Shown: positions 1 to 6,277, numbered from the stretch's first letter. The stretch: DNA of 6,277 nt from a virus (IMGVR_UViG_3300020041_000040:1-6277); one strand, 5' to 3'. Made by a program: numbers and translations. Notes: generated by a model from the letters alone, not told the origin.

Positions 1-7
1 ACTAGAA

Positions 8-54
8 GCCCATCGCGGCGTTTGAGCGATATACACCCGCCGCCCGCGTAGGGC
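8..54 (+). promoter_or_regulatory. GC-rich imperfect hairpin presenting the nonamer ATATACACC in its loop (candidate origin or ssDNA structural element)
   Basis: Hand-folded pairs are 8-11/51-54, 14-18/44-48, 19-20/41-42 and 26-28/38-40. That gives 14 pairs, all G:C, with a 2x2 mismatch, a C43 bulge and a 5-nt bulge (21-25). The apical loop is 29-37, atatacacc. A duplicate lies at 6164-6210. Confidence 0.45.
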
Positions 55-66
55 CTGATCGAAATA

Positions 67-112
67 TGGAGCGGAGCGACTTCCTTAGAGAAGCGTTCCG
101 CTTCGGTATTTT
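67..112 (+). terminator. Strong hairpin followed by a T-tract: candidate intrinsic terminator of the gene array, or an ssDNA origin hairpin
   Basis: The stem pairs 67-78 with 94-105 and 80-83 with 90-93, with A79 bulged and a 6-nt loop cttaga. This is about 16 pairs including 3 G:T wobbles. It is followed by ggtATTTTa (TTTT at 109-112). It is the first strong structure downstream of the last gene on the circle, and a duplicate lies at 6223-6268. Confidence 0.4.
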
Positions 113-130
113 AGCACGAAGGTGCGCAAA

Positions 131-152
131 GGCAGATTCTATCTGATCTGCC
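131..152 (+). promoter_or_regulatory. 7-bp perfect hairpin (ggcagat / atctgcc), 8-nt loop
   Basis: 131-137 is complementary to 146-152, with loop tctatctg. The flanking gcacg (114-118) and cgtgc (152-156) could form an alternative enclosing stem. Confidence 0.35.
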
Positions 153-157
153 GTGCC

Positions 158-178
158 TATACACCTCTGTATACATCC
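158..178 (+). repeat. Two adjacent copies of TATACAYC (a third copy sits in the loop at 30-37): iteron-like motif
   Basis: tatacacc occurs at 30-37 and 158-165, and tatacatc at 170-177. All three lie in the non-coding region. Confidence 0.4.
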
Positions 179-223
179 ACTTTTCCTAGATCTATTAGTA
201 ATGGATCCAGGACTGTTAATTAA

Positions 224-249
224 GCGAAGCCCCTAGTTGTGTGCGAAGC
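224..249 (+). promoter_or_regulatory. Two copies of GCGAAGC, the stable DNA mini-hairpin heptamer, 12 nt apart
   Basis: gcgaagc occurs at 224-230 and 243-249. d(GCGAAGC) is a characterised, exceptionally stable ssDNA mini-hairpin. Confidence 0.4.
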
Positions 250-254
250 AAAAT

Positions 255-284
255 CCGAGTTATCCTCTCGGTTTCTCCTTTTCC
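255..284 (+). terminator. Weak hairpin plus T/C-rich tract (possible weak terminator or insulator upstream of the promoter)
   Basis: ccgag (255-259) pairs with ctcgg (267-271) around a 7-nt loop, followed by tttctccttttcc. The stem is only 5 bp, so support is weak. Confidence 0.2.
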
Positions 285-341
285 TCGTCCATAAACGCAC
301 AACTCACACTCTACGGTAGAATCTAAAAAAAATAGTTTTCT

Positions 342-372
342 TTTGCAATTATGAATATAGTTCGTATATTTG
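342..372 (+). promoter_or_regulatory. Bacteroidetes-type promoter (-33 TTTG / -7 TAnnTTTG) driving the gene array
   Basis: TTTG at 342-345 is followed by a 19-nt spacer and then TATATTTG at 365-372, which matches TAnnTTTG. An A8 tract lies upstream at 325-332. An AT-rich leader without a Shine-Dalgarno sequence runs about 45 nt to the ATG at 422. Confidence 0.6.
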
Positions 373-421
373 CCCCCAGTTAGAAGTTACAACTATTATT
401 AATTTTTTAAAATTTACGATT

Positions 422-616
422 ATGCAAAAATTCATTATTTCAGTTAAAGAAAAAACCACTGGTCGTGATGCTATTCCGCCTTATATCGTTAATTCTCTCG
501 ATGGTCTTGGAAATTATTCTGAGCGAGTTTCTCCGTTGGGTCTTATTGTTATTGTGGATTCGATTAAAGAGGAAAATAAGTTTGTCGAACTTAAAACCCA
601 TGATGATGAAAAGTAA
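422..616 (+). CDS. Hypothetical protein, 64 aa (first gene after the promoter)
   Basis: The ORF starts right after the promoter and leader. Its codons end mostly in T, like the recognisable genes. The overlapping Leu-rich +1 frame (465-599) shows the usual off-frame artefact pattern, which supports this frame as the coding one. I recognise no motif. Confidence 0.6.
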   Translation: MQKFIISVKEKTTGRDAIPPYIVNSLDGLGNYSERVSPLGLIVIVDSIKEENKFVELKTHDDEK

Positions 617-2850: not shown

Positions 2851-4578
2851 ATGAGTGATTTTAATCCCCTTGATCGAGCGAGGATTTCTACGCATCGATC
2901 TTCATTCGACTTGAGTTCGAAGAAACTGTTTACTGCTAAGATTGGTGAGATCTTGCCATGTTATTGGCAGATTGCTATTCCTGGTAATAAGTATCGTATT
3001 TCATCTGACTGGTTTACCCGCACTGTTCCAGTTAATACTGCTGCTTACACCCGTATTAAGGAATATTATGATTTCTACGCTGTGCCGTTACGTCTGATTT
3101 CTCGTGCGCTTCCTCAGGCATTTACTCAAATGACGGACTATATGACTAGTGCTTCTAGTTCTACTACTAATACATCTGCACTTACCGCTGTTCCCTATGT
3201 TACTCAGAGCCTCTTTAGTCAGTTTCTTCAGACGGCTAATGCTGGTGACCAGGCTAATACTCGTGATGATGCTGGCCTCCCTATCGTTTATGGTTCTTGT
3301 AAATTGCTCGATATGCTTGGTTATGGATCTCTGATTGCTAATTCTAATACAGGTAAGGCTGCTATTACTGAGAAATATCTAGGTATTGACAACCTTGGTG
3401 ATGCTGACAATCCTTTGGTTTATCAGACTTCACAGACTGTTAATTCTCTTCCGTTCCTTGCTTATCAGAAGATTTACTATGATTTCTATAGTAATCCTCA
3501 ATGGGAAAAGCACAAAGCTTACGCTTATAATGTAGACTATTGGACTGGAACTGGCAATACTGGATTGGTTACGGACATGCTCCAGTTGCGCTATGCCAAT
3601 TATCCCAAAGATTATTTTATGGGTATGTTGCCTTCTTCTCAGTATGGTTCGGTAGCTGCTTTGCCTATATCCACTTTGTCTAATTTTTCTAATACTTCTA
3701 TTGTGACTCCTTCTTCTCAGGGAGTATTGGTTAATACTTCAGGTACTTCTGTTGCTCTTTCTTCTGTTGGTCCTGGGAATAATGCTCAATTGCGTTTAAA
3801 TGCTGACCTCTCCGCTCTCTCAATTCGTGCAACTGAATATTTGCAACGCTGGAAGGAAGTAGTTCAATTCAGTAGTAAGGACTATTCAGATCAAATGGCC
3901 GCCCAGTTTGGTATTAAAGCCCCCGAATATATGGGTAACCATGCCCATTATATTGGAGGTTGGTCTAGTGTAATCAATATTAACGAGGTTATTAATACTA
4001 ATCTTGATACTGATTCTTCACAGGCTTCTATTGCTGGTAAAGGTGTTTCTAGCCAGTCAGGCCATACTATTACTTATGACTGTGGTGCAGAACATCAAGT
4101 AATTATGTGTGTATACCATGCTGTACCTATGTTGGATTGGAATTTGACAGGCCAAGCTCCTCAATTGACTGTGACTGCTATATCTGACTTCCCGCAACCT
4201 GCATTTGATCAGCTTGGTATGCAAGCCGTTCCTGCTCTTAACCTTCAGAATAATCCTGGCCGCTCCGTTTCTGGCTCTCTTGGCTATAACCTCCGCTACT
4301 GGCAGTGGAAATCTAATATTGATACTGTCCATGCTGGATTCCGTACTGGTGCTGCTTATCAGTCTTGGGTTGCTCCTCTTGACGGTTGGCAAGTGTTAAC
4401 TTCTTCTGGCGCTTGGTCTTATCAGTCTATGAAAGTTCGTCCGCAACAGTTGAATTCTATTTTTGTACCTCAGGTTGATGCTACCAATTGTTCGGTTGCA
4501 TTTGATCAGTTATTATGTAATGTTAATTTCCAAGTATATGCTGTTCAAAACTTGGATCGTAATGGTTTACCTTATTAA
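2851..4578 (+). CDS. VP1: Major capsid protein (Microviridae VP1 / F-protein family), 575 aa
   Basis: Two blocks match conserved regions of Microviridae capsid proteins as I recall them. One is the N-terminal block HRSSFDLSSKKLFTAKIGEILPCYWQIAIPGNKY...VPVNTAAYTRIKEYYDFYAVPLRLI. The other is the central block LSIRATEYLQRWKEVVQFSSKDYSDQMAAQFGIKAPEYMGNHAHYIGG. Confidence 0.93.
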   Translation: MSDFNPLDRARISTHRSSFDLSSKKLFTAKIGEILPCYWQIAIPGNKYRISSDWFTRTVPVNTAAYTRIKEYYDFYAVPLRLISRALPQAFTQMTDYMTSASSSTTNTSALTAVPYVTQSLFSQFLQTANAGDQANTRDDAGLPIVYGSCKLLDMLGYGSLIANSNTGKAAITEKYLGIDNLGDADNPLVYQTSQTVNSLPFLAYQKIYYDFYSNPQWEKHKAYAYNVDYWTGTGNTGLVTDMLQLRYANYPKDYFMGMLPSSQYGSVAALPISTLSNFSNTSIVTPSSQGVLVNTSGTSVALSSVGPGNNAQLRLNADLSALSIRATEYLQRWKEVVQFSSKDYSDQMAAQFGIKAPEYMGNHAHYIGGWSSVININEVINTNLDTDSSQASIAGKGVSSQSGHTITYDCGAEHQVIMCVYHAVPMLDWNLTGQAPQLTVTAISDFPQPAFDQLGMQAVPALNLQNNPGRSVSGSLGYNLRYWQWKSNIDTVHAGFRTGAAYQSWVAPLDGWQVLTSSGAWSYQSMKVRPQQLNSIFVPQVDATNCSVAFDQLLCNVNFQVYAVQNLDRNGLPY

Positions 4579-4588
4579 TCTGTTTGTT

Positions 4589-5032
4589 ATGAGAAGTTTT
4601 GCTTATAAGAACCCCGATTGTATTAAAAATGAGGTTATCCCCGAATTGGTTGAGGATAATCCGTGTTATCAGGAATCTGTATATGATTCTGTGATGTATG
4701 ATGAAACTCCTGATGGTGATTTGATTCAGGTCGATATGACACAAATCCTGTTAAATCAGGAAAAATATCGCCGTTCGCTTGGTGATATGAACGTTCAGAG
4801 CATCCTAGACCAGATGCATCCTACTCAGTCTACCGTGATGGATGGTATGACTGATGCAGAACGGTTTGAATGTGTCGTTTCCCGACATTGTCAGACGATG
4901 TCTGAAAGGCAGGCTGTGTTACAACAGCTGGCTGGTGAGAAGTCTGAGCTTACTAAATATGCTGAAGCTATGTTGGCAGAGCAAAAGTCAGAGCCCGCTT
5001 CTGCGTCCGCCCCTGACGCTCCTGCTCAATGA
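4589..5032 (+). CDS. Acidic 147-aa protein between VP1 and VP2: candidate internal scaffolding protein (VP3-like) or hypothetical
   Basis: ATG 4589 lies 10 nt after the VP1 stop. The track ORF starts at 4463, but that extension overlaps VP1 and is Leu-rich off-frame junk. The protein is acidic with a low-complexity tail EPASASAPDAPAQ. Its stop overlaps the VP2 ATG (ATGA at 5029-5032). The function is inferred from position and size only. Confidence 0.75.
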   Translation: MRSFAYKNPDCIKNEVIPELVEDNPCYQESVYDSVMYDETPDGDLIQVDMTQILLNQEKYRRSLGDMNVQSILDQMHPTQSTVMDGMTDAERFECVVSRHCQTMSERQAVLQQLAGEKSELTKYAEAMLAEQKSEPASASAPDAPAQ

Positions 5033-6144
5033 GATTCTATGATATTGGAGAAAGCCCCTTAATGGGGCACTCCGAAAAGCATATTGCTCCTCTTGTCCTT
5101 GGAGGTATTATTGCTGCTGGTGCTTCTCTTGCTGGTAACGCTATTGGTGCATCATCCCAGAATAAGACAAATCAGACTAGTATTGATATTAATCGTGAGA
5201 ATAACGCATTTAATGCTCATCAGGCTCAGATTCAGCGTGATTGGCAGGAAAAAATGTGGGGAATGAATAATGCCTATAACTCCCCTAATGCTATGATTTC
5301 TCGCGGTCTGAATCCGTTTGTTCAAGGTTCTGCCGCTTTGGCTGGCTCTAAGGCTCCTGCTTCAGGCGGTGCTGTTGCTTCTGCTGCTGGTATGCCTAGC
5401 TTACAAGCATTTCGCCCTGATTTCTCGGATGTAGGTTCTGCTCTTGCTTCCATGGCTCAGGCTCGTGCTGCTATGCTTAACGCTGAACAGAATGCCTCTC
5501 TTACTCCGTATAAGATGCTACAGATTCTTGGTGATACTAATTATCGTAATATTGGTGTTGGCCAGTCAGGTTATTGGAATGCGTCTACTGGCCGTCGATC
5601 TGCATTGTTGGATCAGTCTAAGGAATATCAGGAGCTTAAGAATATGGAATTTGCTGGTCGTCTTACTTCTGCTCAAGAAGCACAGATTCTCCTTGATTCT
5701 GAAGCCCAACAGGTGCTTAATAAGTATCTTGATGAGCAACAACAGGCTGATCTGTTTATCAAAGGCCAGACCTTATCTAATTTGTATGCTCAACACTCTC
5801 TTACAGAGGCTCAGTATAAAACTGAGATGGCTAAGGCTGTAAAAATTTCTGCTGAGACCAATGGTCTTCGTATTAGTAATAAGATTGCATCTCAAACCGC
5901 TGATTCTTTGATTTATGCTAATATTCAGTCTAATCGTGCTCGAGGCTTATCTTCATTATGGGAATCTAAGAATACCAATGTGCTTAAAAATATTGAGTTT
6001 TCTAAAGATAAGGCTTTGCGTGATTATTATAAGTGGAGCTCTAAGTCTAAACAGAAGGACGTTGATTCTTATGAGTTGCGTAATGCTGTAGATTATGGAT
6101 CTAGGATTTTTCAAGGTATCGGTAACAGTATTGGAAGAAGGTAG
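5029..6144 (+). CDS. VP2: Minor capsid / DNA pilot protein (Microviridae VP2, functional analogue of phiX174 H), 371 aa
   Basis: It has a Gly/Ala-rich hydrophobic N-terminus (IAPLVLGGIIAAGASLAGNAIGA). This is followed by NAFNAHQAQIQRDWQEKMWGMNNAYNSPNAMISRGLNPF, which resembles the conserved VP2 N-terminal block of gokushovirus-like phages. A long Gln/Ala/Leu-rich, presumably helical region follows. An alternative start is ATG 5062 (MGHSEKH). Confidence 0.85.
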   Translation: MRFYDIGESPLMGHSEKHIAPLVLGGIIAAGASLAGNAIGASSQNKTNQTSIDINRENNAFNAHQAQIQRDWQEKMWGMNNAYNSPNAMISRGLNPFVQGSAALAGSKAPASGGAVASAAGMPSLQAFRPDFSDVGSALASMAQARAAMLNAEQNASLTPYKMLQILGDTNYRNIGVGQSGYWNASTGRRSALLDQSKEYQELKNMEFAGRLTSAQEAQILLDSEAQQVLNKYLDEQQQADLFIKGQTLSNLYAQHSLTEAQYKTEMAKAVKISAETNGLRISNKIASQTADSLIYANIQSNRARGLSSLWESKNTNVLKNIEFSKDKALRDYYKWSSKSKQKDVDSYELRNAVDYGSRIFQGIGNSIGRR

Positions 6145-6156
6145 GCATTCTTCAGG

Positions 6157-6277
6157 ACTAGAAGCCCATCGCGGCGTTTGAGCGATATACACCCGCCGCC
6201 CGCGTAGGGCCTGATCGAAATATGGAGCGGAGCGACTTCCTTAGAGAAGCGTTCCGCTTCGGTATTTTAGCACGAAG
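6157..6277. repeat. Terminal direct repeat, copy 2 (circular-assembly overlap)
   Basis: Identical to 1-121. It starts 12 nt after the VP2 stop codon (TAG 6142-6144). Confidence 0.95.

Follow-up and report, generated by a model that had tools for sequence, protein, structure and literature searches.

The window analysed here, the whole stretch of 6,277 nt, is recorded as a complete virus genome whose ends are direct repeats: positions 1-121 are exactly those of 6157-6277, so that the genome is a circle of 6,156 nt. The phage is a microvirus of gut Bacteroidales with single-stranded DNA (ssDNA). Its recognisable genes all lie on the + strand and are tightly packed, with spacers of 0-18 nt or overlaps between them; they comprise a 64-aa ORF (422-616; first ATG at 422), an M15 peptidase (686-994), a Rep of 611 aa (997-2832), the major capsid protein (2851-4578), a scaffold-like ORF (4463-5032) and a pilot-protein-like ORF, VP2 (5029-6144, with its stop at 6144). 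The sole non-coding gap follows VP2 and consists of 6145-6156 plus 1-421, 433 nt in total. A preliminary description, made from the sequence alone, had singled out this gap as unusually long for so compact a genome, and its account of gene packing and of the gap holds. Only chance ORFs occur there, one at 122-223 (+ strand, 33 aa, GTG start), which spans an insert absent from most relatives, and one at 349-459 (- strand, 36 aa); a search of the gap for tRNA and tmRNA returned none.

Base composition changes along the gap. The first 60 nt hold 38 G+C, as had been noted, and the G+C content is 55% in 1-165, 45% in 214-312 and 24% in 313-421, against 40% for the whole genome. The layout consists of a module that we call A (1-165), a variable spacer (166-213), a module B (214-312), and then an A-tract and a promoter, the final ~100 nt being an AT-rich promoter and leader of the Bacteroidota type, in agreement with the earlier reading. 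When both DNA strands of the region were folded and compared with shuffled sequences, z-scores of -4.1 (+ strand) and -3.9 (- strand) were obtained. The short repeats that had been mentioned are TATACAYC, found three times where 0.5 are expected, and GCGNAGC, found three times on the + strand, all of them within the gap. Three hairpins had also been proposed by eye, and two of these, P3 at 67-105 and P5b at 131-152, prove genuine and are conserved. The third, at 8-54, is the minimum-energy fold of a single sequence and was discarded as a conserved fold; the comparative data instead back the helices P1, S1 and S2 described below.

The same locus is present in about 120 independent assemblies, which rules out a chimeric origin of the segment. 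These are IMG/VR genomes retrieved via two invariant blocks of the gap; in addition, the region is shared, at 70-92% identity, by 34 microviruses in GenBank that were sampled from lemurs, dogs and humans. No conserved gene occupies the region in any of the relatives compared. Alignments of the gaps of the clade contain invariant runs of up to 30 nt, and across the same genomes the lowest amino-acid identities are 63% for Rep, 64% for VP1 and 46% for VP2; because the invariant blocks persist while these proteins diverge, the gap is the best-conserved part of the genome. The clade is delimited by a break in Rep identity, which is 60-77% within it and below 31% outside. Conservation and covariation of the stems, on which the preliminary description had made its proposal depend, were borne out for most helices, with compensatory changes within the clade in P1, S1, S2, P4, P5, P6, M3 and P7.

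Module A (1-165, + strand) is a structured, clade-specific cassette that begins directly after the VP2 stop and extends across the circle junction. Its mean column identity among 20 diverse genomes is 86%, and a covariance model built from it (R2) matches the clade of the window alone. It opens with the hairpin P1 (12-16/26-30), in which the pair 15:27 is G:C, A:T or C:G among clade genomes, followed by an invariant TATACACC at 30-37. Two interleaved stems come next (38-54), S1 at 38-40/46-48 and S2 at 42-45/51-54, both with covariation among 124 parsed genomes: pair 38:48 of S1 is C:G in 113, G:C in 6 and T:A in 5, with 0 violations, and in S2 the pairs 45:51 (C:G or T:A) and 44:52 (C:G or A:T) likewise have 0 violations, and 43:53 (C:G or G:C) has one. 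S1 and S2 are predicted to form either a tight, compact pseudoknot or two alternative hairpins, between which covariation cannot choose. The long hairpin P3 (69-103) carries a mini-hairpin, M1 (GCGGAGC, 71-77), in its 5' arm and has GGTATTTTAG behind it, up to position 114. P4 (114-117/122-125) has an A:T pair at 116:123 in 70 genomes and G:C in 22, and P5 (126-128/154-156 and 131-137/146-152) varies at 132:151 (G:C or A:T) and 135:148 (G:C, G:T or A:T); the DNA fold of 114-165 has a z-score of -3.5. The module closes with a second TATACACC at 158-165.

The spacer (166-213) is a hot spot for insertions. It is entered by a small TATACA/TGTATA hairpin (158-173) and contains an optional hairpin (184-212); positions 178-213 are absent from most relatives, and others have unrelated inserts or tandem repeats there. 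Three further relationships involving module A were considered and rejected. RNAalifold proposed a long-range pairing of GGAGCG (68-77) with GCGAAGCCCC (224-233), and in one genome positions 224 and 230 have changed in concert, so that the mini-hairpin at that place is preserved and the long-range pairs are broken. A pairing of GGTAT with ATACC (105-109 with 159-163) was dropped as well, position 109 varying with no compensation. Finally, co-variation of the two TATACACC copies, which would have been a sign of one phage-encoded reader, is contradicted by the outgroups, most of which combine TATACACC with TAAACACC.

Module A is missing or replaced in five clade genomes whose Rep is 72-82% identical, and these have just a terminator and a short TTTCCGAAAGTA motif ahead of module B. 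Outgroup genomes possess an analogous block, in which the place of P1 is taken by another hairpin that has a GCGTAGC or GCGAAGC cap and leads into TATACACC or TAAACACC; this block also holds an (A)GCCGAAGGC(T) hairpin, GCGTAAGC and a second CTATAC(A)CC. Module B, for its part, is present in every clade genome. Because module A comes and goes while module B stays, we regard the former as an exchangeable cassette and the latter as the core of the element.

Module B (214-312, + strand), the universal core, forms a three-way junction of P6, M3 and P7. A mini-hairpin, M2 (GCGAAGC, 224-230), precedes the junction, which is closed by P6 (235-242/297-304) and holds a further mini-hairpin of the same sequence, M3 (243-249), the hairpin P7 (252-259/267-274) and an unpaired, single-stranded CTCGTC-CATAAAC (284-296); an invariant CACAC (305-309) stands at the end of the module. 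As a single sequence it is modestly stable when folded as DNA (z = -1.5). A covariance model of module B (R1) scores 113 bits in the window and matches 73 of 85 distant microviruses, gathered through an outgroup capsid protein, whose Rep is less than 31% identical; in outgroup genomes the match lies downstream of the pilot gene, in non-coding sequence. One further match occurs on the gene strand of phiHBP1, a cultured phage of Bacteroides fragilis (30 bits, E = 1.5e-5). In the matches from distant genomes 99.2% of the alignment cells at paired positions can pair and 14 of the 18 pairs show double changes, figures that come from an alignment fitted to the model and from phylogenetically related sequences, the effect being large nevertheless: 0 of 500 shuffles attain the observed values, and partners slid along the sequence pair at 31-41%. 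The stems of M2 and M3 covary too, giving for example GGCGAAGCC, GACGAAGTC and GGTGAAACC, and the M3 loop occurs as all four GNA triloops (GAA, GGA, GTA and GCA) as well as GNNA.

The conserved structure can be assigned to one strand. G.T pairs are common in the helices of the + strand, T242.G297 in P6 being invariant, and since the complement would have A.C mismatches in their place, the structure is that of the + strand, which we take, from the characterised Microviridae, to be the packaged strand. All single-copy matches of the module B model are on the gene strand. The same asymmetry is seen for C:G-closed GNA/GNNA mini-hairpins, of which the + strand has 3.3 per 330 nt in the clade and 4.4 in the outgroup, compared with 0.2-0.3 on the - strand; in the region they are 9-21 times as dense as elsewhere on the + strand, which has more than 10 times as many of them as its complement. 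As DNA, such mini-hairpins have an extraordinary stability that they largely lose as RNA (r(GCGAAAGC) melts at 39 C); they bind single-strand-binding protein (SSB) poorly, and cap the complementary-strand origins of G4, St-1 and alpha3, the ssiA signal of RSF1010, where the mini-hairpin is CCGAAGG, and the hairpin promoters of N4 (PMC13037366, a 2026 review). In the G4 record we found GCGAAAGC within the annotated primer site.

The element is flanked by putative transcription signals. Downstream of module B and the A-tract lies a Bacteroidota-type promoter (342-372, + strand) with a -33 TTTG at 342-345, a 19-nt spacer and a -7 TATATTTG at 365-372, with a predicted transcription start near 379 and an AT-rich leader that extends as far as the first ATG (422); a comparison of 13 genomes shows both TTTG blocks to be conserved. 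When 74 outgroup genomes were searched for a strict form of the promoter motif, 59 had it at 0-100 nt downstream of module B, and not one had it in the 450 nt that end with module B. On the upstream side, P3 has an RNA fold of -24 kcal/mol (z = -4.1), is followed by GGTATTTTAG and was called terminator-like in a scan, as was P7; P3 is thus probably the intrinsic terminator of a single operon. Promoter and terminator functions had both been anticipated for the region, and the former is seen as a Bacteroidota-type promoter, the latter being probable for P3 on sequence grounds. P3 has decayed in 8 clade genomes, and all 8 have a canonical terminator upstream of module A and retain GCGRAGC. Likewise, a strong terminator of hairpin and T-tract lies between the pilot gene and the modules in all four outgroup genomes examined (L140, L141, L142 and L144). 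With a terminator before them and a promoter after them, the modules thus probably lie in a non-transcribed spacer in many relatives, and yet they are conserved. In the window, where 12 nt alone separate the VP2 stop from module A, about 1-110 is probably transcribed.

The reading that we favour, with moderate confidence, is that the gap is a replication-control region acting as folded ssDNA of the packaged (+) strand, most likely the complementary-strand origin. Once the + strand is inside the cell, its helices would form along with the highly stable GNA mini-hairpins; folding would keep single-strand-binding protein off this stretch and give it a definite shape, which a host priming enzyme (primase, the PriA primosome or RNA polymerase) would recognise so that complementary-strand synthesis starts. 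Module B would be the universal core single-strand initiation signal and module A an accessory, exchangeable cassette, whose P3 may double as the transcription terminator of the single operon, with the putative Bacteroidota-type promoter directly 3' of module B. We infer the priming function, and the enzyme involved, from conservation, covariation, strand specificity, the enrichment of mini-hairpins and the position between terminator and promoter. An origin of this type was among the functions first suggested for the region. It is the best-supported reading, with stems that covary; the hairpin at 8-54 is no part of the conserved fold, and the element has no detectable homology to those of phiX174, G4 or ssoA.

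A different kind of origin would make use of the same structures. The gap could be the viral-strand (+) origin, with Rep binding and nicking at the CTYGTC-YATAAAC loop of the junction or at P1 and TATACACC, and with the helices extruded from the supercoiled replicative form. An invariant motif beside a variable hairpin is the pattern of HUH nick sites, as in the nonamers of CRESS viruses, the nic sites of relaxases and IS608, and P1 with TATACACC presents just such an invariant motif beside a variable, covarying hairpin, which persists across Reps less than 31% identical. Nicking at CTTG/ATA is characteristic of phiX174 and of pC194-type origins; the unpaired, AT-rich CTYG of the junction resembles this site, a likeness of only 4-5 nt. 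Module B is moreover found in every clade genome. Its retention alongside very divergent Reps, however, fits a target of a host factor at least equally well, and P1 with TATACACC is wholly missing from the five genomes that lack module A, whose Rep is closely related. The strand asymmetry in G.T pairs and GNA loops would be unneeded for a site cut in a duplex. The viral-strand origin of phiX174 (30 nt, with CAACTTG/ATA) sits within the Rep gene rather than in a gap, and its first 18 nt have no match here at up to 3 mismatches. We therefore regard a viral-strand origin as unlikely to be the main function of the gap. It is compatible with a complementary-strand origin, since both origins could share the region; the two are indistinguishable here, and a candidate Rep nick site could lie within it.

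The structure could also act as RNA, in the form of a structured 3'-UTR, a terminator complex or a non-coding RNA made from the operon transcript or an unrecognised promoter. It lies on the mRNA-sense strand, tolerates G.U-type wobbles, one of them invariant, and includes the terminator-like P3 and P7; in the window no terminator precedes module A, and some M3 variants have GAAA loops, which are stable in RNA too. The C:G-closed GNA triloops that dominate, however, are far less stable in RNA, and it is mini-hairpins of 2-3 bp that are conserved and covary. In the examined outgroups and eight clade members, moreover, the strong terminator stands ahead of the modules, and of the 74 outgroup genomes none has the promoter motif in the 450 nt that end with module B, while 59 have it just behind the module. 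A search of Rfam at E up to 10 gave chance matches only, none of them in 1-340 on the + strand. The DNA-type mini-hairpins, together with the terminator before the modules and the promoter after them, therefore favour DNA over RNA, and the structured non-coding RNA that had been put forward as an alternative is disfavoured on these grounds; as an explanation of the whole element we consider RNA distinctly improbable. About 1-110 of the window, predicted to be transcribed, may have a role as RNA.

Least probable of all, and in our judgement very improbable, is a folded ssDNA recombination site (an attP like that of CTXphi, used by XerC/D) or a DNA site with some other role outside replication, be it a packaging signal, which the analysis neither supports nor contradicts and of which we know none in Microviridae, or a regulator-binding region upstream of the promoter: module B does lie 0-100 nt upstream of the promoter, but the covariation reflects selection on intrastrand pairing and not on a protein site in duplex DNA, the sequence closest to the bacterial dif consensus departs from it at 7-8 of 28 positions and falls outside the gap, and neither conserved block has a match in 185,579 species-representative genomes, so that no integrated copies are seen. 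Integration is suggested by related proviruses of Bacteroidetes, which are flanked by dif-like sites upstream of Rep, and by CTXphi, which integrates via a folded ssDNA site (PMC3091885). Among 72,556 plasmids no similarity was found either.

Taken as a complementary-strand origin, the element is most readily compared with the oric of G4, St-1 and alpha3 (Bullavirinae). In both cases a non-coding stretch of a microvirus, present in one copy per genome, has a packaged strand that folds into a few adjacent hairpins, and in both a hairpin carries a GCGNNAGC-type or GCGNAGC DNA mini-hairpin cap, which in oric is at the priming site. The element differs in being larger and modular (about 310 nt compared with about 140), in having a three-way junction, interleaved stems and 3-5 GNA mini-hairpins, in its position between the pilot-protein gene and the promoter, whereas oric lies between F and G, and in its host, which belongs to the Bacteroidales. 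Comparing R1 and R2 with the G4 oric and the phiX174 F-G region gave no significant match (best E 0.44 to 1.8).

The phiX174 n' (PriA) hairpin and the M13 minus-strand origin are likewise folded ssDNA signals in a non-coding gap, and recruit host priming machinery (PMC9865509, and general knowledge). A profile comparison with phiX174 gave a best match of 7.9 bits (E = 1.8), which is not significant, and we found no promoter-like hairpin pair of the M13 kind in the region. A parallel in organisation may also be drawn with the ssoA, ssoU, ssoT and ssoW cassettes and the ssi signals, which are strand-specific, orientation-dependent and highly structured non-coding cassettes of 150-300 nt. The sso of rolling-circle plasmids is exchanged independently of Rep, as module A is here; module B, unlike these cassettes, is universal and not exchangeable, and the CS-6 motif of ssoA, TAGCGW, is absent from 1-421. 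Among microviruses themselves, conserved intergenic hairpins with compensatory substitutions have been described in the reekeekee- and roodoodoo-microviruses and proposed as negative-strand starts, a role that is unproven (PMC9865509). Those clades are unrelated microviruses, and their hairpins are simple, 1-2 in number and 13-64 nt long, whereas the element described here has a multi-domain fold and constitutes a covariance-model family of its own, spanning Reps less than 31% identical.

A broader proposal is possible, and we offer it tentatively, as more doubtful than a priming function as such. Module B and its mini-hairpins may represent an undescribed family of structured ssDNA, built on a three-way junction with sheared-G.A triloops, to which module A adds a compact DNA pseudoknot or a switch between two states. 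Such a family would be the general origin of Bacteroidales microviruses, and the host enzyme that primes there would read its three-dimensional shape and not its sequence. If so, it would be to DNA what a structured RNA family is to RNA, a family defined by covariation. The element is already a rare case of a DNA structure backed by covariation of the kind normally seen for RNAs.

To our knowledge, replication origins have been defined experimentally for phiX174-like coliphages only, and we know of no complementary-strand origin or Rep nick site defined in the abundant gut microviruses. The element is a testable origin candidate for these phages at base-pair resolution, and its covariance model recognises it across a large phage group. 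Its occurrence in the cultured pair of Bacteroides fragilis and phiHBP1 places it where it can be mutated, and an origin cassette that works in Bacteroides could serve ssDNA vectors. There is also a consequence for annotation: several GenBank records place ORFs or hypothetical proteins over the region, and these are not conserved among relatives.

Two of the contigs compared, L119 and L124, are non-microvirus IMG/VR contigs of 22-26 kb. Each encodes a CRISPR-Cas locus of type I-C (Cas3, Cas5d, Csd1, Cas7, Cas4, Cas1 and Cas2), and spacers in L119 (11900-12500) and L124 match the phage genome at three sites. The first matches the Rep gene at positions 2403-2432 of the window with 100% identity across 30 nt, and a second matches positions 4756-4789 with 88% identity. 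The third is identical to module B's invariant block GTCTATAAACG...AACTCACAC (equivalent to 285-309 of the window), as a variant present in some relatives. The Csd1 protein of these contigs is found as an identical protein in gut Bacteroidales genomes (e.g., GCA_000273035.1). Together, the spacer matches and the identical Csd1 link the phage clade to a Bacteroidales host.

Independent support for a host within the Bacteroidota comes from the predicted promoter. Both at 342-372 of the window and at the outgroup loci (L141-L225) it takes the form TTTG, 17-23 nt, TAnnTTTG, which is the Bacteroidota type and not that of sigma-70. A promoter of this type was detected 0-100 nt downstream of module B in 59 of the 74 distant genomes. 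Identity of the Rep protein (encoded at 997-2832) breaks sharply, from 60-77% inside the clade to <31% outside it; gene order and module B are retained across this break.

Module A (1-165) is absent in five clade genomes (L107, L109, L118, L122 and L128), where the region upstream of module B (214-312) holds only a terminator and the common TTTCCGAAAGTA(Y)CG motif, a combination that may represent a minimal alternative cassette. The inter-module spacer is an insertion hot spot, as seen at 178-213 of the window and at the same position in L056, L022, L102 and L122. At this position L056 carries tandem repeats of ~25 nt, and L102 and L122 have in common one unrelated block of ~150 nt; the window's own hairpin (184-212) is common to only ~10 relatives.

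GenBank hypothetical proteins are annotated across the structured element in the cultured Bacteroides fragilis phage phiHBP1 (L226:2326-2736) and in two further genomes (L141:3581-3784 and L007:351-677). These ORFs are not conserved in sister genomes, and they are probably spurious.

Module B is partly duplicated in tandem in L103, an IMG/VR contig of 6,307 nt, and the module B covariance model matched L220 twice, on opposite strands near its ends, possibly through an assembly artefact.
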